DNA of 64,000 nucleotides. It comes from Acidobacteriota bacterium. GTDB taxonomy: Bacteria > Acidobacteriota > Vicinamibacteria > Vicinamibacterales > UBA8438. Where the stretch lies: NCBI GenBank assembly GCA_011523845.1, contig WTFV01000076.1:999-64998 (forward strand). Reading direction: 5' to 3'. This document shows, one piece after another, positions 13,900-62,328 of the stretch. The position numbers were made by a program, and so were the translations under genes. Position 1 is the stretch's first letter. Each line of letters opens with the position of its first letter. A model generated the notes under the pieces. That model ran no database searches and was not told the origin of the DNA. It saw only the letters and a program-made list of their open reading frames with translations.

Positions 13900-14059
13900 G
13901 GTGTTCTCCGTTCGTGGGTCATTGGAGACGGCGACGGCAATTGGGTCTGTGTAGTTCGCCACCCGGCGGCGCCGGACCCCGTAGTCATGAAACCTCGGTT
14001 TTGCGGCGTGGTGACCCGGTGCCGGGGCCCGGCCGATTCGCAGGGGCAGAGGCTGTCGG

Positions 14060-15274
14060 CGATCATCAGCTTCTCCGTAATTCGGAAACCCCGTCGTTTA
14101 CGGCGGGGAGGAGCATTACTCCCGCCTTCAGGCGGGTCTTCGCTTTCCCTTTGCTTATAATTAGCGGGTGGCGTTGCGTTCTCGCCCACCGAAGGTTCCC
14201 GTCAAGACGCTGAAGGTCCGTGTCAGGGACCGTCACGTTCCCGTCCTTCGCCGCATGGCTCGCGAGGTCAATGCCGTCTGGAACGTCTGCAACCAGCACC
14301 AGCTCGAGGTCTTCCGGCGTGAGGGTCGCTTGCTGTCTGGCTTCGACTTCGCGCCGTTCGTCCGCGGTGCCAGCGCCGAGTTCGAACTGATCGGCTCGTC
14401 GACCATCGACGAGATCCGCGATCAGTACGCGGTCAAGCGCCGTGCCGCCGGCAAGGTGCGCTTGCGCTGGCGTCGCAGCGGGGGCCGCCGGCGGTCGCTC
14501 GGCTGGGTGCCTTTCAAGCGCCGGGCGACCAGATGGACGGGCGACGCCGTGCGCTTCGCCGGCATCGACTTCGGCGTCTGGGATTCCTACAGCCTTGGCG
14601 GGTACGACTTCCGTGCGGGGGCCTTCGTGGAGGACGCCCGCGGCCGCTGGTACTTCTGCCTCCAGGTGGAGGTGGAGGTGTGTTCCGGCCATGCCGGCGC
14701 TGCTGTTGGCGTTGACCTCGGCCTCAAGGCCGTTGCGGTCACCTCGGACGCCGACCGTCTCGAGCATGGCCGTTGGTACCGTCAGGCCCAGGAGGCGGTG
14801 GGCCGTGCCGCGCGCGCCCGAAAGCGTGGCCGCGTCCGGGCGTTGCACGCGAAGGTTCGCAATCAGCGTCGCGACGCCTTGCACAAGTGGACGAGGAGCA
14901 CCGTCGACCGGTGCTCCGAGATCGTGGTTGGCGATGTTTGCCCGTCTGCCGTGGGCAAGACGCGGCTCGCCAAGTCGGTGTACGACACCGGGTGGACCCT
15001 GTTGCGCACGATGCTTCGATACAAGAGCGAGCACGCCGGCATCCGTTGCGTGGTGGTCCCCGAACGCGATTCGACCCGGACCTGTTCGTGTTGCGGGAGT
15101 GTTCCCGCCAGCAGTCCGAGAGGTAGGGCAGGACTCCGAATAAGAGAGTGGACGTGCAGCGAGTGCGGCGCCCGGCATGACCGGGATGTCAATGCGGCAC
15201 GGAACATTCTCGTGGCGGGGCATCGCCATCCTGCAGAGGGAATCCCCGCCCTTTAGGGCGGGGAGGATGTCAAG
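14060..15274 (+). mobile_element. TnpB-only IS200/IS605-family element with no tnpA; the left boundary is approximate
   Basis: A left-end hairpin CCCCGTCG-TTTA-CGGCGGGG (14089..14108) and CCCGCC-TTCA-GGCGGG (14121..14136). A right-end hairpin TCCCCGCCC-TTTA-GGGCGGGGA (15243..15264). The right end is set where the two copies stop matching, after ...GATGTCAAG (15274). Confidence 0.7.
14168..15256 (+). CDS. tnpB: TnpB (OrfB) RNA-guided nuclease-like transposon protein
   Basis: 362 aa with a GTG start. It contains ...GVDLGLKAVAVTSD... (RuvC-I), ...RRDALHKWT... and TCSCCGSVP...EWTCSECGARHDRDVNAARNI (zinc ribbon plus RuvC-III). Confidence 0.9.
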   Translation: MALRSRPPKVPVKTLKVRVRDRHVPVLRRMAREVNAVWNVCNQHQLEVFRREGRLLSGFDFAPFVRGASAEFELIGSSTIDEIRDQYAVKRRAAGKVRLRWRRSGGRRRSLGWVPFKRRATRWTGDAVRFAGIDFGVWDSYSLGGYDFRAGAFVEDARGRWYFCLQVEVEVCSGHAGAAVGVDLGLKAVAVTSDADRLEHGRWYRQAQEAVGRAARARKRGRVRALHAKVRNQRRDALHKWTRSTVDRCSEIVVGDVCPSAVGKTRLAKSVYDTGWTLLRTMLRYKSEHAGIRCVVVPERDSTRTCSCCGSVPASSPRGRAGLRIREWTCSECGARHDRDVNAARNILVAGHRHPAEGIPAL

Positions 15275-15294
15275 AGTTTCTTCTTCGTAGCAGC
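15120..15294 (+). ncRNA. Predicted omega/reRNA scaffold overlapping the tnpB 3' end, plus flank-derived guide; bounds approximate
   Basis: Inferred from established TnpB biology. The only direct sequence support is the conserved right-end hairpin and the terminal GGGGAGGATGTCAAG shared by both copies. Confidence 0.35.
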
Positions 15295-15456
15295 GTTATC
15301 GGTTGGAACCGGCGCGATGGAGAGGATTGATCGTGTCACTCCGGTGCCCAGTGTGAGGCGCGGCCGCCACTCCCTGTCGTTCCAGCACCCGCCGCAGCAC
15401 CTTCTCGTCGGCCGCGCCGTTGGCGGAATCGGTCGATCCGTTCGGGTGCCCCGGTT

Positions 15457-17487
15457 CTACGGTATCTGGTCGTCCGGCGTGTCGGGGTCCCAGGGGTCGT
15501 CGAGGCCGATCTCGTTGAGGAAGCGTGACTCGGGGCTCACGTTTCCGCCGTGGCGTCTTCGGAATCCGGCGGTCGTGATCACGAGCCGGTCCATCGCGCG
15601 GGTCATGCCGACGTAGAACAGGCGCCGCTCCTCCTCGATGCCCTCGCGTGTCTCCAGGCTGCGGCTGTGCGGCAGCAGTCCCTCCTCGACGCCGGCGATC
15701 ACCACGGTGGGGAACTCCAGCCCCTTGGCCGCGTGCAGGGTCATCATCCAGACGCGCGCGTCGCCGGGTCCGTCGCCTTCGTCGGCCTCCGACAGCAGCG
15801 ATTGCCGGTTCACGAAGTCGGCCAGCGTCGGCTGTTCGGCGCCGTGCTCGTAGTCGTCGGCGGCGGCGACCAACTCCATCAGGTTGTCGACCCGGTCCTC
15901 CGCCTCGGCGACGTTGCCGTCGCGGGGAACTTTCAGGTACCCGGTGCGGCCTATCGCGTCCTCGACGGTTTTGCCGATGGCGGCGCCGGCCGCGTTGCCG
16001 CGCATCTTGTCGATCAGCTCGATGAATGCGTACATCCTCGCTGCCGCGCGGCCCGTCAGCCTGCGCTCGGCGCAGCCGGCGTTCAGTCGGGACCAGAGCG
16101 ACGCCCGCTCGCCCGCTTCGTCTTGCGGGGGTGCGAACAGCGTTCCCGCCGGTTCTTCGCGCACCGGCGGTCCGGCCGCCTTGTCGATGCTGCGCGGCCC
16201 GATGCCGCGGGGCGGGGAGTTGATGATCCGCCGGAGGCTGACGTCGTCGTGCGGGTTGACGATCACCTTCAGGTAGGCGAGCGCGTCCTTGATCTCCTTG
16301 CGCTCGTAGAACCGGATGTTGCCGACGATGTGGTAGGGGATCCTGGCGCGGCGCAGCGCGTCCTCGACGAGGCGCGACTGCGCGTTGGTCCGGTAGAGCA
16401 CGGCCGTCTGCCGCGGGGCGTTCGGCCGGGCGGCCACGATGCGGACGATGGCGTCGGCCTCGTCGTGGTCGGACTCGGTGCGCAGGTGCTCGACCTCGGC
16501 GCCCGGTGCGCGCCCGGTCCACAGCGTCTTGTCGGCGCGGTCCTTGTTGCGGGCGATGAGCGCCGCCGCGGCGGAGACGATGTTGCCGCTCGAGCGGTAG
16601 TTGCGCTCGAGGTTGACGATGGTGTGCTCGGGGAAGTCCGCCTCGAAGGTCCGGATGTTTCCGATGTCGGCTCCCCGCCAGCCGTAGATGGCCTGGTCGG
16701 GGTCGCCGACGGCGCAGACGTTGCGGTGGTCGCGGGCGAGCAGGTACGTCAGCCGGTACTGGGCGTGGTTGGTGTCCTGGTACTCGTCGACGAGGACGTG
16801 GCGGTAGCGGGCGGCGTACTTCTCGCGGACGGCGTCGTGGTGGCCCAGCAGGGATACGGCGCGCAGCAGCAGGTCGTCGAAGTCCAGTGCGCCGGCCCGG
16901 CGCAGGATCTTCTCGTACTGCTCGAAGCAGTCGACGAGCTGCGCGTTGCGGTAGCCCTCCTCGGTGGCTCGCAGCTGTTCCGGGGTGAGCATCCTGTTCT
17001 TCCACTGGCCGATCTGCCAGACGACGCTGCGCGGCGGTAGCGAGTCCTTGTCGTAGTCGAGCTCGTCGATCGCCAGGCGTGCGGACTTGAGCTGGTCGGC
17101 GGTGTCGTAGATGGTGAAGCTCGGCGCGACCTGCACGTGCCGGCCGTCGGCCCGCAGGATGCGGGCGCAGAACGAGTGGTAGGTGGACAGCAGGGCGGTC
17201 GGGCCGCGGTTTCCCAGCAGTTGGACGAGCCGGGCGCGCATCTCGTTGGCGGCCTTGTTGGTGAAGGTGATGCCGAGGATGTGCCGGGCCGGCACGGTCC
17301 CGGAGCGGACGAGCCAGGCGATGCGGTGGCAGATGACGCGGGTCTTTCCAGAGCCGGGTCCGGCGAGGATGAGCAGGGGTCCGCCCGGGTGGCATACGGC
17401 GGCGCGCTGTTGGTCGTTGAGGCCGTCGAGCAGCGTCTCGGGCGGGTTGTGGGTCGTTGTCGGCGGGGGCGGTGCGATCTGTGTCAT
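15457..17487 (-). CDS. UvrD/PcrA/Rep-family ATP-dependent DNA helicase
   Basis: AGPGSGKT (Walker A), ITFTNKAANEM, VLVDEYQDTN (DExx box), YRS, and LHAAKGLEFPTVVIAG...VGMTRA in the correct order. 676 aa. Confidence 0.95.
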   Translation of the reverse strand: MTQIAPPPPTTTHNPPETLLDGLNDQQRAAVCHPGGPLLILAGPGSGKTRVICHRIAWLVRSGTVPARHILGITFTNKAANEMRARLVQLLGNRGPTALLSTYHSFCARILRADGRHVQVAPSFTIYDTADQLKSARLAIDELDYDKDSLPPRSVVWQIGQWKNRMLTPEQLRATEEGYRNAQLVDCFEQYEKILRRAGALDFDDLLLRAVSLLGHHDAVREKYAARYRHVLVDEYQDTNHAQYRLTYLLARDHRNVCAVGDPDQAIYGWRGADIGNIRTFEADFPEHTIVNLERNYRSSGNIVSAAAALIARNKDRADKTLWTGRAPGAEVEHLRTESDHDEADAIVRIVAARPNAPRQTAVLYRTNAQSRLVEDALRRARIPYHIVGNIRFYERKEIKDALAYLKVIVNPHDDVSLRRIINSPPRGIGPRSIDKAAGPPVREEPAGTLFAPPQDEAGERASLWSRLNAGCAERRLTGRAAARMYAFIELIDKMRGNAAGAAIGKTVEDAIGRTGYLKVPRDGNVAEAEDRVDNLMELVAAADDYEHGAEQPTLADFVNRQSLLSEADEGDGPGDARVWMMTLHAAKGLEFPTVVIAGVEEGLLPHSRSLETREGIEEERRLFYVGMTRAMDRLVITTAGFRRRHGGNVSPESRFLNEIGLDDPWDPDTPDDQIP

Positions 17488-17599
17488 CTGGGCTGCTGGA
17501 AGCGTAGGGGCGGTCGTGTGTCAAGAATCGCCGGCGTGTCCGGCGCTTGTCGGCGAGTGCAGGAGATCCGCGGGTCAGCGGGTACAGGGCGTGTGCTCT

Positions 17600-18412
17600 G
17601 CATGGGGCGTGCGGAGATCGGGGCGAGCGCCTGGACGGTCACGACGGGAGATCCGTGCACGGCTCCGGGTGCGGAGCGCGGAGGGCGAAGTTCCCCTGGC
17701 GAGCTTCCAATGGGCGGCGGCCACCGACCCGCTGGACGAGCACACGCTGGCCGCGGTCGCCGCCGGGGTGTCGACACGCCGGTATGCGAGCACGTTGGAC
17801 CCGGTACCGTCTGAGGTGACCGAGCGGGCGACGTCGAGCAGCGCCGTGTCGCGGCGGTTCGTAGCGCTGTCGACAAAGCGCCTCCAGGCGTTTCTCGACC
17901 GGCCGTTGGGGGAACTGGACCTGCGGGTGGTCTGCATCGACGGCAAGGTCTTCCGGGACCACTGCATGGTGATCGCGCTGGGGATCGACACCCAGGGCCG
18001 GAAACACGTGCTGGGCTTGCGCGAAGGCGCCACCGAGACGGCGGCCGTCACCACCGGCCTGCTGGGCGACCTGGTGACGCGCGGGCTGCCGACGGACCGG
18101 ACGGTGCTGTTCGTCATCGTGCAACGCCTCGGTCTGACGGGGGCGCTGCAGCGTACGTTGCGGACGACGAACATCATCGAGAACCTCAACGGCAGCGTCG
18201 AGCGCTACTCGCGCAACGTGAAGCGCTGGCGCGGTGGTCAGATGATTCAACGCTGGGTGGCGAGCGCGCTGGTCGAGGCGGAGAAGCGCTTCCGGCGCGT
18301 CCGGGGCTACCGTGACCTGCAGCACTTGGTCCGCACTTGGTCCGCGCCCTCGACGCGATGCGTCCCCCTGACGGCATGGTTGCTGACGTGGCGTAATATG
18401 ATGACCTCGTAG
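17600..18412 (+). pseudogene. IS256-family (mutator-type) transposase remnant, 5'-truncated and with an internal deletion
   Basis: ...AEGEVPLASFQWAAATDPLDEHTLAAVAAGVSTRRYASTL...SSSAVSRRFV...RVVCIDGKVF...ALGIDTQGRKHVLGL.EG.TE... jumps at ...TVLFVI|VQRLGLTGALQRTLRTTNIIENLNGSVERYSRNVKRWRGGQM..RW. The central DDE segment expected between these blocks is absent. Confidence 0.8.
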
Positions 18413-18658
18413 GGGAGACCGGGAGTCCGTCACCCGAAGTTCAACAACGAACGGGACATTCCCGGCGTGAGGGTTCCCCCGGCAGATCCCCGCTGCATGT
18501 CGGAGTCCGTCCCGCCTCACTTGGCGGTTCGTTCTCTGACGGCGAGGCTGACGCGATCAGTTGCGCGCCGTTACTTTCCTTCGCTCACCCGCGGCGAGCG
18601 TCCATTGGGAGCACACTTTCGAGCACGTTCTCGTTGGTCCACCGTCCGAGGTGGCCTA

Positions 18659-19123
18659 CTATCCCGGGCCGCCGCGTTTCCGCTCCAGGTAGTCGGCGGC
18701 CGCGCGCATCTCGTCGGCGTCCCACGCCGTCCAGTCGTTGCCTTGCGGCAACCCGGGCGCCCCGGTGCTTCTTCCGGTGGCGACGATGCGGACGGCGAGC
18801 CGCTCGGCGCCGTACTCCCGACACAGGGCCAGGAACCGGGTCGTCAGCGCGACCGACGGCAGGTCGTGAACACCCGACGGCTGCCGCTCGCCGTCTCGGA
18901 TTGCGTGGTCCGGAGGTTCCGCCCGCAGTGTCGTCGTGGCTTTGTCCTCGCTTGTCTCGTAGCGCACGACCTGTCCGGTCCGGTACGACGTCATGCGCAC
19001 CAGCCCGCAGGCTTTGCACACGTCCGCCCGGCAGTCGTTCGTCGAGCGTTTGCGTGCGAGCCGCCACACATGCCCGCTGGCCCGTCGCGGGCAGGGAGGA
19101 ACCTGCAGGTTCTGGTGGGCCAT
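18659..19123 (-). CDS. Hypothetical protein
   Basis: 154-aa ORF with consistently high GC3 and a normal amino-acid mix. No motif recognised apart from a C-x5-C-x2-C cluster (CRADVCKAC) near the N-terminus. Confidence 0.5.
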   Translation of the reverse strand: MAHQNLQVPPCPRRASGHVWRLARKRSTNDCRADVCKACGLVRMTSYRTGQVVRYETSEDKATTTLRAEPPDHAIRDGERQPSGVHDLPSVALTTRFLALCREYGAERLAVRIVATGRSTGAPGLPQGNDWTAWDADEMRAAADYLERKRGGPG

Positions 19124-33421: not shown

Positions 33422-36144
33422 CCGCAGCCGCTCGTCGCCCCGCAGTTGGGGCAGCTGTAGCAGGCGCCGTTGCGGATCATGATCGTTCCGCAGATGACGC
33501 ACGGCGGCGCGTCGGCGTCGCTGTACGTCGGCCGGGGCGTTGACGGCGCCGCGTCCGGTGTCTCGTTCGCCGGGGCGTGGGCGGCGCCGTTGCCCGCGGC
33601 CGTGCCGGCGGCTGCGGGTTCGGTGGGCCGGTTGACGCCGGCCTGGATCTGCGCCTCGGGCGAGAGGAAGCGGGTCGCCATCCAGCGGAAGACGTAGTCG
33701 ACGATCGACTTGGCGATGCGCACCTTGGGGTTCTTCGTCAGGCCGGCCGGCTCGAACCGCGTGTGGCTGAACTTGTCGACCAGCGTCTGCAGCGGCACGC
33801 CGTACTGCAGGTTGTAGGAGACCGCCTGGGCGAAGGAGTCGGCGAAGCCGGAGATCGTCGAGCCCTCCTTGGACATGACCAGGAACATCTCGCCGGGGCT
33901 GCCGTCCTCGTACAGCCCGATGGTGATGTAGCCCTTGTAGCCGGCGATGTCGAACTTGTGGATGACCGCCTCGCGCTCGTCGGGCAGCTTGCGGCGCACC
34001 GGCCGCGGCTGCGCTCCGGGGCCGCCGAGCCCCGTGTTGAGCGGCTGGGTCCGCTTGCTGCCGTTGCGGTAGACGGAGACGGACTTGGCGCCGCGCCGCC
34101 AGGCGTCCAGGTAGGCTTCCTCGATGTCGTCGACGGTCGCCTCGTTGGGGAGGTTGACGGTCTTCGAGATCGCTCCGGAGATGAACGGCTGGACGGCGCT
34201 GACCATCTTCACGTGGCCCGCGTAGTGGATCGCGCGCGTGCCGTCGGGCGGCTTGTCGGCGCAGTCGAACACCGGCAGGTGGCCGGGGTCGAGCCCGGGT
34301 GCGCCCTCGATGGTCCCGTGCTCGTCGACGTGGCGGACGATGTTCTCGATCTGCTGGGCGTCGTAGCCGAGGCGTTCGAGCGCGGTGGATACCGTCCGGT
34401 TGACGATGCGGATCGTGCCGCCGCCGACCAGGTGCTTGTACTTGACGAGCGCGATGTCGGGCTCGACCCCGGTGGTGTCGCAGTCCATCATGAAGGCGAT
34501 GGTCCCGGTGGGCGCGAGCACGGTCGCCTGCGCGTTGCGGAAGCCGTGGGCCTCTCCGATCGCTATCGCCTCGTCCCATATCCCGCGTATCCGGCGGTGC
34601 TGCTCCTCGGTCAGGTCCGCGCCCCCGAGCGCGTCGCGGTGCTTGCGCATGACGCGCAGGAAGGGCTCGGCGTTGCGCTCGTAGCCGGAGAACGGGCCGC
34701 CGCAGTCGCGGGCGATGCGGGCAGACTGCAGGTAGGCCTCGCCGGTCATCACGGCCGTGATGGCGGCCGCGCAGCGGCGGGCGGCGTCCGAGTCGTAGGG
34801 GATGGCGTGCGACATCAGCAGCGCGCCCAGGTTGGCGTAGCCGAGCCCGAGCGGCCGGTAGGCGTGCGAGTTCTTCTCGATCGCTTCGGTCGGGTAGCTC
34901 GCGTTGTCGACCAGGATCTCCTGGGCGGTGATCATCGTGCGCACGCCGGCGCGGAAAGCGTCGACGTCGAACTCCTCCGGGTTGTCGGGCTTGACGAAGG
35001 CGAGCAGGTTCAGGGACGCCAGGTTGCAGGCCGAGTCGTCGAGGAACATGTACTCCGAACAGGGATTGGACGCGTTGATCCGGGCCGTGTTCGGGCAGGT
35101 GTGCCAGTCGTTGATGGTGGTGTCGAACTGCATTCCCGGGTCGCCGCACTCGTGCGCCCGCTCGGCGATTGCGCGCATCAGGTCGCGGGCGCGGTAGGTG
35201 TCGATGACGCGGCGCTCGCCGGTGACGGCGCGGGTGACCCATTCTGCGTCGTCGACCACCGCGCGCATGAACTGGTCGGGGACGCGGACGCTGTTGTTCG
35301 CGTTCTGGAAGAAGACCGAGGCGTAGGCGGGGCCGGTCAGCGACCCGTCGTAGCCGGCGTCGATCAGCGCCCAGGCCTTGCGCTCCTCCTCGGCCTTGCA
35401 GTTGATGAACTCGAGGACGTCGGGGTGGTCGACGTTGAGGATGCTCATCTTCGCTGCGCGACGCCTCCCTCCTCCCGACTTGATGACGCCGGCGAAGGCG
35501 TCGTAGCCCTTCATGAAGGAGACCGGCCCCGACGGGATGCCGCCGCCGGTGATCGTCTCGTGGCGCGAGCGGATGGGGGAGAGGTTGGTGCCGGTGCCCG
35601 AGCCGTACTTGAACAGCATGCCCTCGGTCTTTGCGAGGGACATGATGGACTCCATCGAGTCCTCGACGCTGAGTATGAAGCACGCACTGCATTGGGGGTC
35701 CTCGTCCCATCCGCAGTTGAACCAGACCGGGCTGTTGAACGCGGCCTTCTGGTGCAGGAGCAGGTAGGTGAGCTCGTCGCCGAACGCCTCGCGGTCCTCG
35801 GGGGTGGCGAAGTAGCCGCCGTTCTCGCCCCATCGGGTGATCGTGTCGGCGACGCGGGAGATGAGCTGGCGGACGCTGTGCTCGCGCTCGTCGGTGCCCG
35901 GGTTGCCGCGGAAGTACTTGTCGGTGATGATGTTGGTGGCCTGCTGGGACCAGGCCTTCGGGACCTCGATGCCCTCCTGTCGGAACACGGACTTGCCGCT
36001 TGTGTTCTCGATCGCGGCGGTGCGGGTTTCCCACTCGACCTTGTCGTAGACGGAGGCTGGCGGCGTGTCCTTCGTGAACGTCCGGGGGAACGTGAGTCCC
36101 GGAGGCTTCGCCGGGCCGTTGGTGCCTGTTCTGGTCTTTGCCAT
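33418..36144 (-). CDS. nrdJ: Class II (adenosylcobalamin-dependent) ribonucleotide reductase
   Basis: 908 aa. It contains ...AFNSPVWFNCG..., CSACFI, SGTGTNLS, NPCSEY and a C-terminal zinc finger CVICGTIMIRNGACYSCPNCG. The order and length are typical of monomeric NrdJ. Confidence 0.93.
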   Translation of the reverse strand: MAKTRTGTNGPAKPPGLTFPRTFTKDTPPASVYDKVEWETRTAAIENTSGKSVFRQEGIEVPKAWSQQATNIITDKYFRGNPGTDEREHSVRQLISRVADTITRWGENGGYFATPEDREAFGDELTYLLLHQKAAFNSPVWFNCGWDEDPQCSACFILSVEDSMESIMSLAKTEGMLFKYGSGTGTNLSPIRSRHETITGGGIPSGPVSFMKGYDAFAGVIKSGGGRRRAAKMSILNVDHPDVLEFINCKAEEERKAWALIDAGYDGSLTGPAYASVFFQNANNSVRVPDQFMRAVVDDAEWVTRAVTGERRVIDTYRARDLMRAIAERAHECGDPGMQFDTTINDWHTCPNTARINASNPCSEYMFLDDSACNLASLNLLAFVKPDNPEEFDVDAFRAGVRTMITAQEILVDNASYPTEAIEKNSHAYRPLGLGYANLGALLMSHAIPYDSDAARRCAAAITAVMTGEAYLQSARIARDCGGPFSGYERNAEPFLRVMRKHRDALGGADLTEEQHRRIRGIWDEAIAIGEAHGFRNAQATVLAPTGTIAFMMDCDTTGVEPDIALVKYKHLVGGGTIRIVNRTVSTALERLGYDAQQIENIVRHVDEHGTIEGAPGLDPGHLPVFDCADKPPDGTRAIHYAGHVKMVSAVQPFISGAISKTVNLPNEATVDDIEEAYLDAWRRGAKSVSVYRNGSKRTQPLNTGLGGPGAQPRPVRRKLPDEREAVIHKFDIAGYKGYITIGLYEDGSPGEMFLVMSKEGSTISGFADSFAQAVSYNLQYGVPLQTLVDKFSHTRFEPAGLTKNPKVRIAKSIVDYVFRWMATRFLSPEAQIQAGVNRPTEPAAAGTAAGNGAAHAPANETPDAAPSTPRPTYSDADAPPCVICGTIMIRNGACYSCPNCGATSGCG

Positions 36145-36490
36145 CGGTGTTGCTTCGTCGGTTGAGTCGTGGCGTTCGTGTCCTGCTGGTCCGCTGCGGC
36201 GCTGCTCGTGTGTGTTCGGCGTCGGGTCCCAGCGTACGGATCGCGTTCCGGCGTCGAGGGTGTCCGGCCTGGAGCGGCGGTATGCGCCGCAAGCGGGTTA
36301 TCCGCGTGCGTGTGGCGCAGGGGTTGCTCCGCGGCCGCTGCTCTGCACGCGTGTCGGGGCAGAGACGGGCGGTCCCGTGCGGCTGTTGTGGCGCGGGCTG
36401 CGGGAGGCTACGAACGTCCTCGTCTCGAAGTACGGTGGATCCCGTTCGTCCGGTGCCGGGTAACCGCTCTGGAATCGTCCGGTACGCGGT

Positions 36491-36519
36491 GGGTGATCCG
36501 GGCGCGTGTGCGACTGGAG
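36491..36519. repeat. Degenerate orphan copy of the 28-29 bp repeat family found at 37270..37476
   Basis: GGGTGATCCGGGCGCGTGTGCGACTGGAG compared with GGGTGATCCACGCGCGTGTGGAGGGGAC. It lies between the stop at 36526 and the nrdJ leader. Confidence 0.7.
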
Positions 36520-36525
36520 TTGTGC

Positions 36526-36897
36526 TTACGGGTTTGGTTTCCGGTCCCGGTCGCCGCCGGGCCGCCGGCTGTGGTGCGTGAGGAACTCGAGCTGCGTGTC
36601 GAAGACACTCTTGCGCGCTGCTTCGGGCGCTGCGAGCAGCTGTTTCTGGTGACGGCGCGTCCATCCGGTGTAGCAGGTTTCTCCGCTGTTGTTCAGGACG
36701 ATCGCGGCTCCGGCGCAGGACTGCAGCGTGTCGTCCTCGATCCGCTGGTCGTCGTGCGAGATCGTCGGATGGCAGGGGAACGGCCGCTCGCGGATCGCCT
36801 CGAGCAACTCGGTGGGCGTCCACGGTCCGGTCCAGCCGGGGCAGCTTGCCCGGCGGAACGGGCACTGGGAGCAGGGTTCGGTCAGGTCGAATCGCAT
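36526..36897 (-). CDS. Cys-rich hypothetical protein
   Basis: MRFDLTEPCSQCPFRRASCPGWTGPWT...FPCHPT...LQSCAGAAIVLNN. This is the tail of track ORF 36526..37371. GC3 is high. Confidence 0.7.
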   Translation of the reverse strand: MRFDLTEPCSQCPFRRASCPGWTGPWTPTELLEAIRERPFPCHPTISHDDQRIEDDTLQSCAGAAIVLNNSGETCYTGWTRRHQKQLLAAPEAARKSVFDTQLEFLTHHSRRPGGDRDRKPNP

Positions 36898-36944
36898 TGC
36901 GGTGGGGATGTCTTGTTGCGTGACCGTAGCGGTCCGTGGGCCGT

Positions 36945-37190
36945 TCAGCCCTTCTCGGAGATGATCAGGTTGGTGTCGTCGGTGACCGCGCCGCGGCGCA
37001 CGTTGTCGGCGGCGCTCTCGAGGTTGTGCAGCAGGTCGTGCACGACGGGCTCGTCGTCGTTCTGGACGGAGTCCTTCGCGTGGTCGATGAACTCGTGCAG
37101 CTGTGATGCCGCCACGGGGCCCAGCTCGAGTTCGGCGAAGATCTCGCCGTGCTCGTTGGTGATGGTCACCTGCATCCTGTTCCATTCCAT
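36945..37190 (-). CDS. Small acidic hypothetical protein
   Basis: MEWNRMQVTITNEHGEIFAELELGPVAASQLHEFIDHAKDSVQNDDEP... GGAAGGAG lies 9 nt upstream of ATG 37190. An alternative ATG is at 37199. Confidence 0.65.
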   Translation of the reverse strand: MEWNRMQVTITNEHGEIFAELELGPVAASQLHEFIDHAKDSVQNDDEPVVHDLLHNLESAADNVRRGAVTDDTNLIISEKG

Positions 37191-37269
37191 GTTTTGCATC
37201 TCCTTCCAGTCTGTGGATCGTTTGCGGTTCTGCCGGGATTCGGCGCGGGTGTGCCGGTTTTCTCGTTGT

Positions 37270-37476
37270 GGGTGATCCACGCGCGTGTGGAGGGGACCTC
37301 CGCATCGGCTCGGCGTCGCGTGCCGGTTCAGGGTGATCCACGCAGCGTGTGGAGGGGGCCGTCGAGTGCACCAGATCCGGTGCGCTGGGTGATCCATGCG
37401 CGCGTGGAGGGGATCGGGGCGCCCTTTCCGGTGGAACGGGCTCGATGGGGGTGATCTACCTGTGCGTGGAGGGGAT
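37270..37476. repeat. Four 28-29 bp direct repeats at 61/56/62 bp spacing: a CRISPR-like mini-array or an iteron/operator cluster
   Basis: R1 37270..37297 GGGTGATCCACGCGCGTGTGGAGGGGAC. R2 37331..37359 GGGTGATCCACGCAGCGTGTGGAGGGGGC. R3 37387..37414 GGGTGATCCATGCGCGCGTGGAGGGGAT. R4 37449..37476 GGGTGATCTACCTGTGCGTGGAGGGGAT. No cas gene is in the window. Confidence 0.85.
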
Positions 37477-37502
37477 TGAGGACGCCGCGGACGATGAAGT
37501 GG

Positions 37503-39197
37503 TCAGCCCGTGCCGTCTTTGCCTTCGTCCGGCTCGATCGTGACCTCGATGGGCTTGTCGCCGCGGATGTGGATGATTGCGTCGCGGCCTTGCGGCAGGT
37601 ACGGCGCGACCCAGCGTGCGACTGCGGTGCGCAGGTTCGAGAGCATCGCCTCCTCGGCCGAGGCCAGCACCTCCAGCGCCTTGGCGAACGCCGCCTGTCG
37701 GTAGTCGTCGACCTGTGTCTCATAGCTGTCGGCTTCGGGATGGTCCGATGGGGTGAAGAACGCGTCGTACATCAGGTCCGCCAGTTCTCCGGGCGTGATC
37801 GTGCTGCCGGCGGTGACGAGCACGCTCAGGTCCTCGGCCCAGCCGATGTCGTCGTCGGGGAACGCGACGTCGCCGCGGATCCGCACGCTACGGGTTGCGC
37901 CGTCGCGTCCGACGGTCTCCAGCGTGAATGTGATCCCGTCCGGACGGCCGGTGTTCGGCGGGTTCCTGCGGATGCGCTGCTCCTCGATACGGATCTCCTC
38001 CCCGTCGAGGGCGGCCGTGGTGGCCAGCTTCGTCGCCTTCGGGAGGCCGTCGTACCAGGGATAGCCGTTGTAGCGGGGCTCCTCCGCGCACAGGCGGTGC
38101 GAGCTATTCGCGCGCAGCGCGGCGCGCCAGAGCGCCTGCTGGTCGCAGGGAGGCATGTCGGCCTCGATGACGATGGGTTCGTCGGGCAAAGCCCTGCGGT
38201 CCGGCCGCTCTCCCTTGGTGGAGTACTCGTTGCTGTACTTCGGTCTCCAGGGCGAGAGCTCCGCGCGCGCGATCGGCAGTCGCACATCCTGCGCCAGCGC
38301 ATCCGCGTGCACTTCGGCGGGGACGTCGATTGCCGGGTCCGCCTTCAGCATCCCCCGGTAGATCGCCGTCCGGCAGGCGGTGCGGAGCTGCTCGACGAAG
38401 GGCGTCTCGACGATCTCCCTGCGTGCTGGCAGCACGAGCTCGAGCTCGGCGCAGTCGATCACGTCGGCCCTGACGTGCCAGGTGGACGCCATCGAGCTAA
38501 TGACCGGCAGGCCCGCGTCCTCGACGAGGATGCCGTGGAAGTTGATCTCGGGACGCCTTCCCGGCGTGTACCGCGTCGCGTGAACGCCCAGGCGGATCCC
38601 GCGCCACTCCTCGGTGTGGACCGCGCCGTGCAGGAACTCGATGCGGTCGACGTCCTTTCCGTTGCAGGTGACCGGCAGAGGGAAGTACCGGGCGGCGCAG
38701 TTGACGTTGCCGGTGCTGGCGTTGTCGTCCTCGAAGACGACCTCGGTGCCGAAGGCGAAACTGTCGCGGTCGATCACCTCGACGGCGGCGGTCTGCCGGC
38801 CCAGGAAGTGCTCCGGCGTCAGGTGGACCTGCCACGCGGGCAGTGCCGTTCCGCCGACGGGCTGAGGCCGGGAGCGGATGGTGACCTTCGGGCGGCGGGC
38901 CAGCGAGTAGATTCCCATCCCCGCAGGGTCCTCGCGCCGGGTGGTCTCGAAGTCCCACCCGGTGCGGCCGAAGGCGAGCAGCGCCGCCGGCTCCGTGATC
39001 CCTTCGCCGTTGTCTCGGACGAGGACCTCGCCGCCGGCGATGGTGACGTCGACCCTCGTTGCGCCGGCGCGGCGGGCGTTCTGGAACAGCTCGTTGAGCG
39101 TCTCGACGGTCGTGGCGTTGAAGAAGCGGGTGACGCGGCTGATGGCGTCCTCGTGGACGCGGGTGCGGATCGTTGCGGGAAGCAGCTTCTCGGGCAT
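37503..39197 (-). CDS. GHKL-superfamily (HATPase_c_3 / Hsp90-MORC-like) ATPase with a ~430-aa uncharacterised C-terminal region
   Basis: AGGAGA sits upstream of ATG 39197. TLNELFQNARRAGATRVDVTI is the N box. VLVRDNGEGI is the G1 box. EDPAGMGIYSLA is G2-like. The rest has no motif I recognise. Confidence 0.78.
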   Translation of the reverse strand: MPEKLLPATIRTRVHEDAISRVTRFFNATTVETLNELFQNARRAGATRVDVTIAGGEVLVRDNGEGITEPAALLAFGRTGWDFETTRREDPAGMGIYSLARRPKVTIRSRPQPVGGTALPAWQVHLTPEHFLGRQTAAVEVIDRDSFAFGTEVVFEDDNASTGNVNCAARYFPLPVTCNGKDVDRIEFLHGAVHTEEWRGIRLGVHATRYTPGRRPEINFHGILVEDAGLPVISSMASTWHVRADVIDCAELELVLPARREIVETPFVEQLRTACRTAIYRGMLKADPAIDVPAEVHADALAQDVRLPIARAELSPWRPKYSNEYSTKGERPDRRALPDEPIVIEADMPPCDQQALWRAALRANSSHRLCAEEPRYNGYPWYDGLPKATKLATTAALDGEEIRIEEQRIRRNPPNTGRPDGITFTLETVGRDGATRSVRIRGDVAFPDDDIGWAEDLSVLVTAGSTITPGELADLMYDAFFTPSDHPEADSYETQVDDYRQAAFAKALEVLASAEEAMLSNLRTAVARWVAPYLPQGRDAIIHIRGDKPIEVTIEPDEGKDGTG

Positions 39198-39884: not shown

Positions 39885-40844
39885 TCAGTCTTCTTCGGCG
39901 TTGCCATCGCCGGCTGTTTCGCGCTCTTGCGTCCTGCGGCTTCGGGGATCCTGTGCCTCGGGCGGTAGGGGCGGGGCCGGCGGTCCGGCGTGGCGGCCCG
40001 GGTGGCGGCGTTCGGCCTCCACGGTGGGGCTCGGGAGGCGTGTGCGGGTCTCCTCGACCAGGCCGATCGGGTCCGGGTGGGTGTCCAGGCAGTTGAGCAG
40101 CCGCTGTCCGGCCGCCGGCAGCGTCCCGCTCAGCGCCATCGCGCCGATGTGGCGGCGCGTGTTGCGCAGGATGTCGGTCGCGGGCGCGCCGTCGTCTCCC
40201 GGCCAGCAGGCGAGCAGGCCCGCCTGGGCCCAGCGCTGGATGTCGTGGGGCTTGTACGTCCAGTTGAGCATCGCTACGTCGGCGTCGTACAGCACCAGGC
40301 CGGTCGTGTGCTCTCCGCGGTGTCCGGCTTCCACCGCCCAGCGGTTGACCTCGATGTGGTCGATGACCGTCATTTCGGTGCGCAGGCAGAGCCACGCTTC
40401 CAGCGCGATGGTCTCGCAGACCATCCTGGCGTCGGCGCTGCGTCGGACCTCGTCCGGGCGGCAGCCGGGGAATCCCCGCGGGTCGATCTCGTCGAGCAGC
40501 TGGACGGCCTGGTCGCTGTAGATCCGCGGCGGCCGGATGAGGACGTACGGGCTGGAGCCGTCGTTCCACATCTTCCACCACCAGGATTCCTCGGCGAGCT
40601 GGCTGGCCGCGTGCATCGCTCCGCGCGCGCGGTGGTGCTCGAGCAGGTTCGCGGCCAGGTTTGCTTCCGAGGCGATCGCGCCCGCGCTGGTCGGCGCCAG
40701 CTGCTCGGCTATGGTGGGGAGTATTCCCACCTTCAGGTCCTTCAGCTCCAGCCATGCGGCCAGCAGGCCCCGCGCCGTCGGGTGCCTGAGTTCGTGCGTG
40801 TGGAACAGCGTCATGGTCGTGGTCGGGGTGTGGCGCTCCGTCAC
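39885..40844 (-). CDS. Hypothetical protein (319 aa), first gene of the SLATT-like/GHKL cassette
   Basis: Clean ORF with high GC3. ...SADARMVCETIALEAWLCLRTEMTVIDHIEV... faintly recalls the PIN-domain core, but the N-terminal acidic residue is not evident. Confidence 0.7.
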   Translation of the reverse strand: MTERHTPTTTMTLFHTHELRHPTARGLLAAWLELKDLKVGILPTIAEQLAPTSAGAIASEANLAANLLEHHRARGAMHAASQLAEESWWWKMWNDGSSPYVLIRPPRIYSDQAVQLLDEIDPRGFPGCRPDEVRRSADARMVCETIALEAWLCLRTEMTVIDHIEVNRWAVEAGHRGEHTTGLVLYDADVAMLNWTYKPHDIQRWAQAGLLACWPGDDGAPATDILRNTRRHIGAMALSGTLPAAGQRLLNCLDTHPDPIGLVEETRTRLPSPTVEAERRHPGRHAGPPAPPLPPEAQDPRSRRTQERETAGDGNAEED

Positions 40845-42540: not shown

Positions 42541-43827
42541 TCACTCCTCGAACTGGTCGGCCGGCTTCCAGCGGGGCGGGTTCTCGCCCAGCAACGGGAG
42601 CACCCGCTGCTCGACGTTCGTGCCGCTCGAGCAGAGGCGGACGGCGTGCTCGCGCATTTTCCGCATCATCACGCCGGCCGGGTCGCCGCTGCCCCGGTTC
42701 TTCTCGTCGAGCCACACGAACCCCCAGGGGCGGAGCTGCGCTTCTCTCGCGGTGGCCGCGATCCAGGCGGCCGCCTGCGCCTTGCGCGTGGCGTGGGTGT
42801 CGCGCACGGCGCTCATCCGGGCGGCTATGCCGCGGCCGCTGGCGGCCAGCCGCTCCAGGACCGTCCGGCCGTACTCGTGCACGCGCGCGGCGCGTTCCTC
42901 GTCGAGGATCGCGGTCAGGTCGCCGATTCCGCCGCTCAGTACCGCCTTGAGCACGTGGGTCTCGCGCGCGTAGGCGTCGCGGCCGCGGTGCAGCGTGACG
43001 TACTGCTCGCCCTTGAGCTTGATGCGGTGGCCGGAGGGGAACGAGACCACGTAGCCTTCGTGGTCGGCGTCGAGCCGCCGGGCGGCGGCGACGAAGCGCT
43101 CGCGCTCGTCCCTCGTGCGGGTGCTCGCGACGAAGGTCTCGACCAGGCGCAGGCGCCCGGAGCGCGCGCCCGTGTCCGCGCAGGCGGCCAGGAAGGTCTC
43201 CGCGAGCTGGTCGTGGGACCAGTAGTGGCCGTCGTCGATGCGGCGGACGGCGAGCAGTGTGAGACTCGCATGCTCGTGCCGGACGACGATGCGGTTGTCG
43301 GGCGAGCAGAACTCGAAGAGCGGCGTGCACGGTGCGCCGTCCTGGTCGCAGATCGTCTGCTGCAGGATGGCGGTCATCTGCTTCCGTTCGCCGTCGTCGA
43401 GGTCGCGTTCGAGGAAGTCGACCGCGAGCTGCGCGATGTCGGTCGGCCCGCTCCGTGTGCACCAGGCGATCTCGCCGCTGGCGCGCCGCGCCGGGTAGAC
43501 GAGCGAGCCGTCGATCTTGGCGGTGATCTCGCAGCCGCCGTCCCAGGGGCAGGCGGAGACCGCGGCGCCGGGCTCCTGCCAGTTGAAGAACTTGTGGAAC
43601 GGGCGGGCGGCGACCTCGCCTCCCTCGTTGACGATGAGGCCGCGCATCTCGGAGAAGGGGAACCGGAACTGCTCCGGGTCGCCGGTCACGTAGGCGTAGT
43701 TGAGCGCGCGCAGCCCGCCTCTATGGCGGCAGGAGAAGGTGTCGGCCTCTGCGGCCAGGCGGCAGAGCGTCTCGCCGTCGGGCAGCGGCCGGGGGGCGTA
43801 AGGGATGGCGTCGGCATTCGGGTCCAC
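42541..43827 (-). CDS. ATP-dependent RNA ligase, T4 Rnl1 (RnlA)-like
   Basis: MRGLIVNEGGEVAARPFHKFFNWQE parallels T4 CRGIMFE...ASRPMEKFFNLNE. AKIDGSLV is the motif I lysine. FEFCSPDNRIVV is motif III-like. HEGYVVSF is motif IV. HRIKLKGEQYVTLH is motif V. Confidence 0.8.
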   Translation of the reverse strand: MDPNADAIPYAPRPLPDGETLCRLAAEADTFSCRHRGGLRALNYAYVTGDPEQFRFPFSEMRGLIVNEGGEVAARPFHKFFNWQEPGAAVSACPWDGGCEITAKIDGSLVYPARRASGEIAWCTRSGPTDIAQLAVDFLERDLDDGERKQMTAILQQTICDQDGAPCTPLFEFCSPDNRIVVRHEHASLTLLAVRRIDDGHYWSHDQLAETFLAACADTGARSGRLRLVETFVASTRTRDERERFVAAARRLDADHEGYVVSFPSGHRIKLKGEQYVTLHRGRDAYARETHVLKAVLSGGIGDLTAILDEERAARVHEYGRTVLERLAASGRGIAARMSAVRDTHATRKAQAAAWIAATAREAQLRPWGFVWLDEKNRGSGDPAGVMMRKMREHAVRLCSSGTNVEQRVLPLLGENPPRWKPADQFEE

Positions 43828-48543: not shown

Positions 48544-50163
48544 CTACGCCGCCGGCGTCGGTGCGTGCTGTGCGGCGGCTCGTTCCTGCCGGTTCTCGGC
48601 GTCGATGCGGCCGAGACCGGCGTCCTCGTGGTTGGCGAAGCGGATCGCCTCGGCGATGGCCTCGTGGCCGGCCTGGTCGCGGATGAGCCGGTGCATCCGC
48701 TGGCAGATGCGGCGGTACGAGGGGTGTCCGGCGGGCTGGGTGCGCAGCTCGATGACGTGCATCGCCTCGCGCGCGTTCATGCGCATGGTGAAGCGGATGC
48801 GGCAGGCCATCGGGACTGCGTACTGCGCGGTGTCGGCGCCGTAGCGCTGCCGGAGGTGCTCGTACAGGCGGCGGGACTCGTCGATGACGCGGTTCCATGC
48901 GGGGCGCAGCCCGGGGATGTCGTCGAGCGCGTCGGGCTCCTCGGTTCCGTGCCGGGTCGTCAGCCGCTGCCAGTCGATGGTCAGCATGCGGTGTCGCTGC
49001 AGGTCCCGGAAGGCGCCGTAGTCGGCGGTGACGTCGAAGGTGTAGTCGGCGTGCTCGAAGGCGCGGCCGGGCCGGTGGCGCCGGTTGCCGCGCTCGCCGA
49101 CGATGTTGCGGATCGTGTGCAACCGTTCGTCCTGCGGCATCTGCCGCACGAGCAGGCGCACGCCGCTCAGCGTGTGCTCGGTCTGTAGATACAGCGCTGC
49201 GGCGAGCACGGCGGTCTCGCCGTCGCCTGTCCAGTCGATAAGGCGGACGTCGTTGCCGGCGTTGCCGGAACGGTTCCAGTCTTCGTCGGGGAGCGTGCAG
49301 GCCGCGTCGGCGGCGGCCGCGTGCTGGCCGCGCAGGTAGTCGCGCCACGCGCCGCCGCGGTCGGCGCGGTGCACCCGCTGGATGAACGCCGGGATCACCT
49401 GCTCGAGCTCGGCGAACATGGCTGCGGCCATTGCCCGCGCCTCGGCCAGCGGGTGCGCGCCGAGGCGGAGCAGCAGCGCCTCGAAGGCCTGTCCGGAGCC
49501 GTGGATGCCGAGGTTGCTGCGCGTGGCGGCGGGCAGCAGGCCGCGCAGCGTGTCGAGCCCGCGGGAGCGGACCGCCCGCTTCCAGGCGCTCTCGTCGTCG
49601 CCGGCGCGACGCGGGTGCGCGCGGCGGAAGTGCGCGTCGGCGCCGCCGAGGAAGCGGGCGTAGGTCTCGAAGGCGTTGTCGAGCGTTTCGCGGTAGCGGC
49701 GGCGGTCCGCGAGGTCGGCGATCTCGGCCGGGGTGACGTACTTCCAGCGGCCCCCGGGGCGCTCGGTGCAGGGCACGTAGCGGGTGGACTGCTCCAGGTA
49801 GGACATGAGCCGCCCGCGCTCGAGGACCTTGGTGAGCACGTTCGACACGCCCTCGCAGGCGACGTGCGCGCTGCCGAGCTGGGCGACCGAGTCGTCTCCG
49901 TACTGCCCGAGCACGCGGTCGTAGAGCGCGGCGGCGCGGCCGGTGGCCTCGTTTGCGCCGTCCGTGCCGGAGGTCGGCGGCACGTCGGCGTCGAACTCGT
50001 CGAGGTACAGCCGGCGCAGCGGCTTCGCGGAGCGGGAGTAGCGGGCGAACAGGGCGCCCTTGACCGTTTCGGGGAGGTTGCGCAGCGCGAAGCAGGGCCG
50101 GTCCGGGTTGGTGAAGCGCGGTTCCAGCCGGGCGCGTTCGGCGTCGGTGAACTCCGGTGTCAT
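48544..50163 (-). CDS. thyX: FAD-dependent thymidylate synthase, long two-domain ThyX form
   Basis: 539 aa. The N-terminal half has ...GALFARYSRS... The C-terminal half has ...YGAFRDLQRHRMLT... (RHR motif) and ...MNAREAMHVIELRT... Confidence 0.85.
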   Translation of the reverse strand: MTPEFTDAERARLEPRFTNPDRPCFALRNLPETVKGALFARYSRSAKPLRRLYLDEFDADVPPTSGTDGANEATGRAAALYDRVLGQYGDDSVAQLGSAHVACEGVSNVLTKVLERGRLMSYLEQSTRYVPCTERPGGRWKYVTPAEIADLADRRRYRETLDNAFETYARFLGGADAHFRRAHPRRAGDDESAWKRAVRSRGLDTLRGLLPAATRSNLGIHGSGQAFEALLLRLGAHPLAEARAMAAAMFAELEQVIPAFIQRVHRADRGGAWRDYLRGQHAAAADAACTLPDEDWNRSGNAGNDVRLIDWTGDGETAVLAAALYLQTEHTLSGVRLLVRQMPQDERLHTIRNIVGERGNRRHRPGRAFEHADYTFDVTADYGAFRDLQRHRMLTIDWQRLTTRHGTEEPDALDDIPGLRPAWNRVIDESRRLYEHLRQRYGADTAQYAVPMACRIRFTMRMNAREAMHVIELRTQPAGHPSYRRICQRMHRLIRDQAGHEAIAEAIRFANHEDAGLGRIDAENRQERAAAQHAPTPAA

Positions 50164-58295: not shown

Positions 58296-58748
58296 TCAGC
58301 GGCCCGCGAGCGTCTGCAGGACGCTGACGACGTTGCGGCGCGCCGCGTCGAGCGCGAGCAGGTGGCGGACCGGGTGGTCTCTCGACGCCTCCGGCTCGCA
58401 GCGGGCGAGCACGTGGTCGAGCGCGGTGCTCATCGTCTCGGTCAGGATGCGGATGGCCTCGATCGGGGTGAGGGCCTGCACCCGCCACTGCGGCCTGCCG
58501 TTGTCGGCCTCGTCGCAGCCGTTGGTCCAGTAGACCGCGGCGGCGGCGTCTTCGGGCAGGTGGAACTCGTCGATCCGCTCGACGGGCAGCCACAGCAGGT
58601 GGCCGGTGATGGGGTCGCCGAGCTCGGCCAGCAGGTGGCCCTCGTCGCTCAGCAGCTCGCACAGCTGCTCGTACTCCGGGGTGTCCGGGTCGACGGTGCG
58701 TCCGGCGCCGGTGTGGGGATGGTCGTTCAGGTCCAGCTGGTGGATCAT
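58296..58748 (-). CDS. Hypothetical protein (150 aa)
   Basis: MIHQLDLNDHPHTGAGRTVDPDTPEYEQLCELLSDEGHLLAELGDP... ATGA overlap with the giant upstream gene. Confidence 0.65.
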   Translation of the reverse strand: MIHQLDLNDHPHTGAGRTVDPDTPEYEQLCELLSDEGHLLAELGDPITGHLLWLPVERIDEFHLPEDAAAAVYWTNGCDEADNGRPQWRVQALTPIEAIRILTETMSTALDHVLARCEPEASRDHPVRHLLALDAARRNVVSVLQTLAGR

Positions 58749-62053: not shown

Positions 62054-62217
62054 CGTCGTGCTCCGAGTGTAAGGGCCGGGTCGGCCCGGCCGGAGTTGGA
62101 GCGCGTGGTTGCCGGGTTGTCCGTGCGCGCGCGGAGGGATGAGGAACAGTCGGGATGCGGGTCGACCGCGTGCGCGGAGAGGTGGTTCCGAGCGGGACGT
62201 CGATCGTCAGGCTGTAG

Positions 62218-62241
62218 GGGTGATCTCCGTGCACGGAGTGG
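62218..62241. promoter_or_regulatory. GGGTGATC box followed by a perfect 14-bp palindrome (CTCCGTGCACGGAG, 62225..62238) in the divergent promoter gap
   Basis: The palindrome was verified by hand. It shares the GGGTGATC head and the ...GGAG tail with the 37270..37476 repeats. It lies ~165 nt upstream of the 62053 start and ~90 nt upstream of 62329. The operator role is inferred. Confidence 0.35.
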
Positions 62242-62328
62242 CGCGGCGTGGGGCGTCCGTTCGACCCCGGAGAGGGGGCGGTCTGCGCCCGCGTGCGGTG
62301 GTGCCGCTTGCAAGCCGTGGGGGCTGTC

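Follow-up and report, generated by a model that had tools for sequence, protein, structure and literature searches.

The unit of a type I-E CRISPR (short palindromic repeats that are clustered and regularly interspaced) array is a 28-bp duplicated repeat with a 33-bp insert, that is, 61 bp in total. Orphan arrays, which have no cas genes beside them, are found on plasmids and mobilisable elements, where their length is below that of cas-linked arrays, the Cas proteins of the host are presumed to serve them in trans, and their spacers are directed against other mobile elements, including transfer genes (Pinilla-Redondo et al. 2021, PMC9071438). Mobile elements also carry Racrs (RNA anti-CRISPRs), that is, CRISPR-like solitary repeat units or mini-arrays without cas genes, and the solitary repeats usually have a promoter of their own directly upstream and acr genes in the vicinity (Camara-Wilpert et al. 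2023, PMC10651486). In addition, regulatory mini-arrays have been described, the cellular ones within cas loci, and both kinds have spacers partly complementary to promoters (bioRxiv 10.1101/2023.03.03.530964, 10.1101/2024.10.29.618823). This study deals with four direct repeats in a 64,000-nt stretch, hereafter the window, of contig WTFV01000076.1 (positions 999-64,998, forward strand; assembly GCA_011523845.1) of an Acidobacteriota bacterium (Vicinamibacterales; UBA8438). With a probability of roughly 0.62, they are a small, partly eroded orphan array of the type I-E family, without cas genes and carried by an integrative mobile element; the feature is then a CRISPR remnant, and neither a replication origin nor an operator cluster. 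Orphan arrays on mobile elements are already known and the window array, though real, is of a rather ordinary kind; the layout of arrays and solitary repeats at several sites within one operon is an unusual variant.

An earlier note, made from the sequence of the window, had described a CRISPR-like mini-array of type I-E flavour consisting of four direct repeats of 28-29 bp, and these repeats were found again by direct reading of the sequence, by a pattern count and by a covariance model (CM) built on 54 distinct repeats of the family. They start at 37270, 37331, 37387 and 37449, which gives periods of 61, 56 and 62 nt from start to start and leaves segments of 33, 27 and 34 nt between the copies, and they occupy the 300-bp gap (37200-37502) separating two minus-strand genes. 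The pattern GGTGATC-N6-14-GTGGAGGG has four matches in the 64 kb (37271, 37332, 37388 and 37450) against 0.01 expected by shuffling, and the four copies score 32-43 bits with the CM (E 6e-10 to 7e-7), on the minus strand throughout. On this strand, which is the gene-sense strand, the unit reads GUCCCCUCCACACGCGCGUGGAUCACCC. The copies differ from one another at 1-6 positions, as had been noted, and direct repeats of about 28-29 nt with unrelated spacers of similar length, the mark of a CRISPR array, are present in the window.

In the gene-sense order (Table 1), repeat 1 (AUCCCCUCCACGCACAGGUAGAUCACCC) begins 26 nt past the stop codon of a gene encoding a GHKL-type ATPase and has a broken stem for which folding predicts no hairpin, the stem of repeat 2 is weakened to 4 bp, and those of repeats 3 and 4 are intact; repeat 4, the best copy, lies 70 nt upstream of the start of a gene for an 84-amino acid (aa) protein. 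The array is decaying, then, with two of the four hairpins intact. Spacer 3 is the sole spacer of the window with an intact repeat on both sides and could yield a canonical 61-nt CRISPR RNA (crRNA), the window having at most one such unit; spacer 2, at 27 nt, is below the length of a canonical I-E guide. A segment GTGCCGGTT was said by the earlier note to be common to two inter-repeat segments, which is real and only marginally beyond chance (31/2000 shuffles, uncorrected for six comparisons), and spacer 3 and the trailer have AACCGGCAC...CGCCGA in common, also with marginal significance. Tandem Repeats Finder reported no tandem unit at the array, as is to be expected of repeats whose filler differs from one interval to the next. 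The RNA fold stability of the whole gap was that of shuffled sequences (z = -0.01) and therefore no larger structured RNA is present; furthermore, a tRNA scan found no tRNA genes, and blastn of 36000-39000 against phage genomes gave no match.

The kinship to type I-E is seen from plasmids: when concatenated island arrays were compared with them by blastn, Streptomyces CRISPR arrays were the only significant matches. The best match among these type I-E arrays of Actinomycetota, on the Streptomyces globosus plasmid NZ_CP030864.1, lies beside casA, casB, cas7e, cas5e, cas6e, cas1e and cas2e, and its repeat CTGCTCCCCGCGCACGCGGGGATGACCCC shares 22 of 28 positions with the island consensus CTCCCCTCCGCGCGCGCGCGGATCACCC in the gene-sense orientation and 18 in the reverse complement; Streptomyces repeats score about 20 bits with the island CM. 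Both have a 61-bp unit and a repeat composed of a short 5' flank, a stem of 6-7 bp, a 4-nt loop and an A-U-N-A-C-C-C tail, in the same orientation relative to the tail, so that an I-E-like repeat sequence and a hairpin with an 8-nt AU..ACC. handle are found here as well. The 61-bp unit is kept by the family and, with periods of 61, 56 and 62 nt, by the window in part only. Unlike those of S. globosus, the island arrays have neither an AT-rich leader nor adjacent cas genes, and the stem of the island repeat has one or two pairs fewer and is less stable (-6 to -10 vs -14 kcal/mol).

The earlier note had seen no cas genes, and this was borne out. Searches with Pfam, NCBIfam and PADLOC found no Cas family among the larger and the island open reading frames (ORFs) of the 64-kb window, tblastn with I-E and I-C Cas proteins gave no match in the window or in 14 related island loci, and no cas gene was seen in the gene tables of these loci, which are stretches of about 20 kb fetched around GHKL and UvrD homologues (L-numbers below denote loci carrying related islands). 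With no cas genes nearby, the array is therefore an orphan.

The same repeat recurs in related islands. Among the GTDB species-representative genomes, which were scanned for the A/T-stem variant of the repeat only (the G/C-stem variant reads CCCTCCGC-N4-7-GCGGATCACCC), 39 loci were found, 38 of them single chance or coding matches. The exception, L041, is a Vicinamibacterales metagenome-assembled genome in which a nine-repeat array of the window's repeat, with a 61-nt period, abuts the 3' end of a GHKL homologue. Periodic repeats at L031, L155 and L167 among the scan matches were rejected as unrelated tandem repeats. The conserved content of the islands is a radical SAM protein, ThyX, DUF1643, a helix-turn-helix (HTH) protein, a 300-aa protein, GHKL, small genes, NrdJ and UvrD, and some islands add a relaxase with NikA and AlpA, a CI/S24 repressor or a resolvase; such a combination of genes indicates an integrative mobile element, in line with the mobile island assumed by the earlier note. 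Scans of IMG/VR with both stem variants of the repeat and with a relative of the GHKL protein gave chance single matches only, and therefore the island is outside that viral collection. The named relatives of the island proteins are from Acidobacteriota or Vicinamibacterales, the GC content of the window is about 70%, and the host of the element is, judging from these sequences, probably a high-GC soil bacterium of the Vicinamibacterales (Acidobacteriota).

The repeat was present in every examined island whose GHKL protein is at least about 62-66% identical to that of the window (nine or so, L179 being the most distant), and the CM did not find it in the distant islands L175, L177 and L178 (GHKL identity in the 42-59% range). 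One of these, L177 (GHKL 55% identical), has the type I-C effector genes cas5c-cas8c-cas7c beside a ParB-like gene (15766-19093), with no array and no cas3 within the 10-kb flank. The copy number in the family ranges from 1 to about 25, and 80 of 80 CM matches are in the gene-sense orientation. The repeats fall at three intergenic hot spots of a long one-directional operon: after the GHKL gene (4 in the window, 9 in L041, 6 in L048, 5 in L050 and 2 in L053), before nrdJ (1 in the window, 1 in L181, 1-2 in L048, 1 in L045/L046 and 4 in L042) and before uvrD (2 in L042, 7 in L045, about 25 in L046, 8 in L171/L083, at least 1 in L179 and a weak relic in the window). In L181, a gene for an MmeI-like type IIG methylase/restriction enzyme and two insertion sequence (IS) elements (13523-16582) are inserted directly after the array.

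The larger arrays of the relatives resemble type I-E arrays more closely than that of the window. The mode of the period is 61 nt (26/63), with 58-62 nt in 41/63; up to 16 consecutive repeats have unique spacers, and the main arrays of L046 and L041 consist of 28-nt repeats and unique spacers nearly all of exactly 33 nt. One spacer in these arrays has a GC content of about 36% (hand count) within a 70% GC genome. The best-conserved columns are those of the 3' stem strand and the tail, the 3' half GGAUCACCC being kept at 90% or more of columns. Furthermore, at the fourth position of the stem 22 of the 54 distinct repeats have a G-C pair and 15 an A-U pair, a switch that keeps the pairing; the covariation was reached in 0/500 shuffles, although it may reflect only a few evolutionary events.

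These properties bear on two explanations outside CRISPR biology. The earlier note had also proposed iterons or repressor sites, that is, sites bound by an island DNA-binding protein at the heads of transcription units, and a TCCAC/GTGGA palindrome in each repeat, copies that precede the first operon gene, nrdJ and uvrD, and the HTH and CI-like proteins encoded by relatives of the island would all suit such sites. Nevertheless, this idea gained no support and is very unlikely: the periods of 56-62 bp with unrelated filler are CRISPR-like and not helically phased as in short iterons, the copy number changes from 1 to about 25 between near-identical islands, an asymmetric conserved tail (AUCACCC) and one strict orientation suit an RNA or CRISPR element, a cas-linked I-E repeat resembles that of the islands, and no rep gene adjoins the array. 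An interspersed structured repeat of the REP/BIME or MIRU kind whose period of about 60 nt is a coincidence is more improbable still. It would account for the intergenic place, the hairpin core and the variable copy number, but the convincing CM matches in the window (E<0.01) are on one strand and confined to the island, with a few weak ones (E 0.03-0.5) elsewhere, the segments between the repeats are unique and not part of a repeated unit, and the best-preserved arrays are exactly 28+33 nt, with one spacer that matches a relaxase gene.

This spacer (14902-14934) is one of L042, and at 29/33 positions it agrees with a site within the relaxase gene of that locus (4803-4835); shuffled spacers gave 0 matches at an equal threshold. 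The 5' flank of the relaxase site together with the first spacer base is GAG, a single flank resembling a protospacer adjacent motif (PAM). GAG is one of the PAMs accepted by the Escherichia coli Cascade. The L042 relaxase gene is part of a module inserted in the locus, and the module also has a solitary repeat (7934-7961) in the sense of its genes.

All spacers of the family are unique and their turnover is extensive. L041 and L048, whose GHKL proteins are 92% identical, have a single common spacer, which is GHKL-proximal and identical at 29/33 positions over its full length (31/33 in the local BLAST alignment). Between the window and L050 the identity is 99.1% in the 3402 bp that reach up to 37499, and beyond this point the similarity is limited to the repeats. 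Similarly, L045/L047 and L046 have an identical GHKL protein, yet 7 vs about 25 repeats. That islands with 99% identity have entirely different spacers implies recent activity or recombination at the array site.

Another explanation is a dead relic, in which the four window repeats would be neutral remains of a once-active array, now inert. The 1-6 differences between copies, the two of four hairpins weakened or lost, the spacers of 34, 27 and 33 nt and the lack of targets for the window spacers are what such a relic would show, and plasmid orphan arrays are often viewed as decaying systems (PMC9071438). This explanation is unlikely but has a real share of the probability; one window unit is still canonical, the replacement of spacers between near-identical islands speaks for recent activity or recombination, and nine or so islands of the subfamily keep repeats at two or more sites despite a divergence of up to about 35% in the protein of the neighbouring gene. 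That repeats are kept at the same three sites in all examined islands of the subfamily argues for some function that the family as a whole has kept.

The comparison of the islands supports the lead reading of the earlier note, a CRISPR-like mini-array without cas genes. The orphan array is most likely used in trans, with a type I-E system of the host, against rival elements; the Cas partner acting in trans is an assumption, since the genome and metagenome scans gave no array of this repeat beside cas genes. In the proposed mechanism, type I-E Cas1-Cas2 supplied in trans would extend the arrays, and the arrays would be transcribed by read-through with the operon, for example, from the GHKL gene. 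Read-through is inferred because the array starts 26 nt past the stop codon and has no promoter-like site and, on the minus strand, no terminator-like site. A Cas6e-type enzyme would then cut at the 3' base of the stem, and the processing would give crRNAs of about 61 nt with a AUCACCCN 5' end and a terminal hairpin, which could arm the host I-E Cascade against competing mobile elements, as has been proposed for the orphan arrays of plasmids (PMC9071438).

Several observations weigh against an orphan I-E array used in this way. With regard to the window itself, two of its four hairpins are damaged, its spacer lengths (34, 27 and 33 nt) are irregular, and its three spacers have no protospacer match in phage and plasmid databases or in the related loci. 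As the earlier note had observed, no leader is recognisable, and there is no sigma-70-like site in 36100-37700. Rfam gave no family, and in particular no CRISPR-DR or riboswitch, in the whole window at the gathering threshold or in 36100-37600 at E<=10. In the family, many arrays have irregular spacers of 8-40 nt, and the call of the orientation depends on modest margins (22 vs 18 identities) and a single PAM-like flank. Moreover, looking for the repeat elsewhere yielded arrays in related islands but none linked to cas: the GTDB representatives, scanned for the A/T-stem variant, gave no cas operon or cas-linked array with the island repeat, only the island array of L041, and among the 120 matches listed in the metagenome scan there were only island arrays. 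The other spacers compared with plasmids and phages, as concatenated arrays, gave insignificant matches only, apart from the Streptomyces CRISPR arrays, and two spacers of relatives with every sixth base wild-carded had no match in IMG/VR.

The lack of a cas-linked array and of a leader and the irregular spacers therefore leave room for simple decay and for a Racr-like decoy. In the latter, the repeats rather than the spacers would be functional and, transcribed with the operon, would act by mimicking the repeats of a host I-E system to soak up Cas6e and Cascade subunits, or as crRNA-like regulators. Racrs, including those of type I-E, are documented on mobile elements (PMC10651486), and in the island family solitary or degenerate units persist at the three hot spots of diverged islands while the spacers turn over, the 3' half of the repeat is the most conserved part even beside spacers cut to 8-30 nt, and many genes of the operon have a counter-defence flavour (NADAR, SLOG/YAcAr, DUF4326, a T4 Rnl1-like ligase and an AbiEii-like nucleotidyltransferase). 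On the other hand, genuine guides are suggested by the unique spacers, uniformly of 33 nt, in the larger arrays and by the relaxase-matching spacer, no promoter is found directly upstream, which solitary Racr repeats often have, and the genome and metagenome scans gave no cas-linked array whose repeat would be mimicked. In addition, between L041 and L048 the orthologous first repeat has, by eye, changed no less than its spacer (several positions vs 4-5/33), which argues against strong selection on every repeat, and the detection of repeats is biased towards intact copies. A decoy or regulator is unlikely as an explanation of the array.

A further idea, which is unlikely, is that a private repeat derived from type I-E serves as a built-in RNA module of the island family, with single units and arrays placed between the operon genes. 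In one version, host Cas6e or Cascade would be recruited to cut the polycistronic mRNA and would be titrated, which would combine anti-CRISPR action with control of expression; in the other, an unrecognised protein encoded by the island would process and use the RNAs, making a cas-less or novel effector system. In either version, the solitary units would also seed new arrays by ectopic spacer integration.

Compared with the described systems, the island family shares with plasmid orphan arrays the lack of cas genes on a mobile element and has a relaxase-matching spacer, but it differs in having several arrays and solitary repeats per element, sense-oriented within one operon at conserved hot spots, and in a repeat variant which was not beside cas genes in the collections searched. 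With Racrs it shares CRISPR-like solitary repeats or mini-arrays on a mobile element without cas genes; unlike Racrs, its units are inside an operon without a promoter-like site, and some arrays of the family resemble true guide arrays. No acr or aca gene was recognised in the window by PADLOC and Pfam, both of which cover these genes poorly. The short arrays, degenerate repeats and atypical spacer lengths recall the regulatory mini-arrays, whereas no promoter target of the kind described for them was found for the window spacers. The mode of action of orphan arrays on mobile elements is mostly guessed, and the island family is a compact test case, in which one repeat occupies three fixed sites between genes in 1 to about 25 copies, with full spacer turnover between elements of 99% identity and at least one relaxase-matching spacer. 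It could show whether elements of soil Acidobacteriota borrow the I-E machinery of their hosts against each other, whether solitary repeats seed arrays, or whether RNA decoys are at work.

Besides the main array, the window contains further copies of the repeat (Table 1). Of the two extra sites listed in the earlier note, that at 62218 is of moderate quality, and the fifth copy at 36491 is weak and may be a decayed unit; the better ones, the first unit of the cluster upstream of the first operon gene and the single repeat found some 150 nt upstream of the start of nrdJ, had been missed. At least five diverged islands have a solitary repeat 150-300 nt upstream of nrdJ (for example, L181:20377-20404, L048:13888-13915 and L045:13199-13226), the site being kept despite differing array sizes. 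About 85 nt upstream of the nrdJ start, six islands have a conserved block GGTCCGTACGCTCG.ACC (36231-36239 in the window, minus strand), and CCCTACGCT, which resembles it, is found directly upstream of the island uvrD start (17501-17509, minus strand). This block, possibly a promoter or operator of the island, is not enriched over the window as a whole, and no enrichment there was seen for the motif CCGTACGCT upstream of nrdJ. The nrdJ product of L042 has 1059 aa and a faint intein signal.

Table 1. Repeat units, spacers and neighbouring genes of the island in window coordinates.
Feature	Position	Strand	Evidence or remark
Repeat 1	37449..37476	-	CM 32.2 bits, E 7e-7
Spacer 1, 34 nt	37415..37448	-	sequence
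Repeat 2, weakened 4-bp stem	37387..37414	-	CM 41 bits; fold -2.7 kcal/mol
Spacer 2, 27 nt	37360..37386	-	sequence
Repeat 3, 29 nt with one additional loop base, 5-bp stem intact	37331..37359	-	CM 35.3 bits; fold -5.8 kcal/mol
Spacer 3, 33 nt	37298..37330	-	sequence, folds of neighbouring repeats
Repeat 4, GUCCCCUCCACACGCGCGUGGAUCACCC	37270..37297	-	CM 42.7 bits, E 6e-10; fold -6.4 kcal/mol
Solitary repeat upstream of nrdJ	36295..36322	-	CM 25.4 bits, E 7e-5
Weak match, possibly a decayed unit	36491..36518	-	CM 13.5 bits, E 0.2
Degenerate cluster of 3-4 repeat units, upstream of first island-operon gene	62114..62305	-	CM
Cluster unit	62114-62141	-	CM 29.9 bits, E 3e-6
Cluster unit, weaker	62160-62186	-	CM 15.4 bits
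Cluster unit	62218-62245	-	CM 18.4 bits, E 0.008
Cluster unit, weaker	62276-62305	-	CM 13.0 bits
Possible relic of the array preceding island uvrD in relatives	17646..17683	-	CM 14.5 bits, E 0.1
84-aa protein, function unassigned, downstream flank of array	36945..37199	-	homologues in L045, L046, L048, L179
564-aa GHKL-type ATPase, upstream flank of array	37503..39197	-	homologues all about 564 aa
309-aa protein beside GHKL gene	39885-40844	-	38 homologues; named ones Acidobacteriota
T4 Rnl1-like RNA ligase	42541-43827	-	
ThyX fusion	48544-50163	-	
1102-aa fusion, first operon gene: DarT-associated NADAR, three YAcAr (SLOG), DUF4326	58745-62053	-	

A stretch reaching from about 62.3 kb to 33.4 kb or beyond has genes on the minus strand only. 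In addition to the genes listed in Table 1, the operon encodes two radical-SAM proteins, an AbiEii-like nucleotidyltransferase, a metallophosphoesterase and several small unknown proteins. The NADAR fusion, the RNA ligase, the ThyX fusion, the radical-SAM proteins and the AbiEii-like nucleotidyltransferase look like a counter-defence and nucleotide-metabolism set. On the 3' side of the array come the 84-aa protein, for which an exact-product look-up found no record, a 123-aa protein and then the class II ribonucleotide reductase NrdJ.

On the 5' side, the ORF which had been read as 762 aa is the gene for the 564-aa GHKL ATPase joined to a separate upstream gene, because all homologues have about 564 aa. 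The AlphaFold2 model of the GHKL protein (pLDDT 86) matches the ATPase of topoisomerase II, Hsp90 and MutL, and the model of the 309-aa protein (pLDDT 88) is mostly helical, with no match in the PDB and no RAMP features; its acidic residues E134, D152 and D179 are invariant. Both were considered as hidden Cas proteins and rejected, the former for its topoisomerase II/Hsp90/MutL-like ATPase structure and the latter for a helical fold which has no PDB match and is not RAMP-like. Both are also present in islands without repeats. The idea that the array is linked to the GHKL gene was likewise rejected, since the more distant GHKL islands have no repeats and arrays also occur at other sites. The GHKL ATPase family is unnamed and has more than 750 homologues; in distant islands of the conjugative type its gene adjoins those of large ParB_N proteins, SSB, Toprim and DUF4326/YAcAr.

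The remainder of the window encodes AcrB, TonB-dependent receptors with CarboxypepD_reg, a hybrid sensor kinase, a Calx-beta protein, TnpB, a Mutator transposase and a UvrD-type helicase. The island-type uvrD (15457-17487, minus strand) is flanked by a TnpB (IS605 OrfB) gene (14168-15256, plus strand) and a Mutator-family transposase gene (17183-18412, plus strand), and the gap of about 16 kb between uvrD and nrdJ is occupied by cargo, namely, an SDF symporter, the hybrid sensor kinase and the Calx-beta protein.

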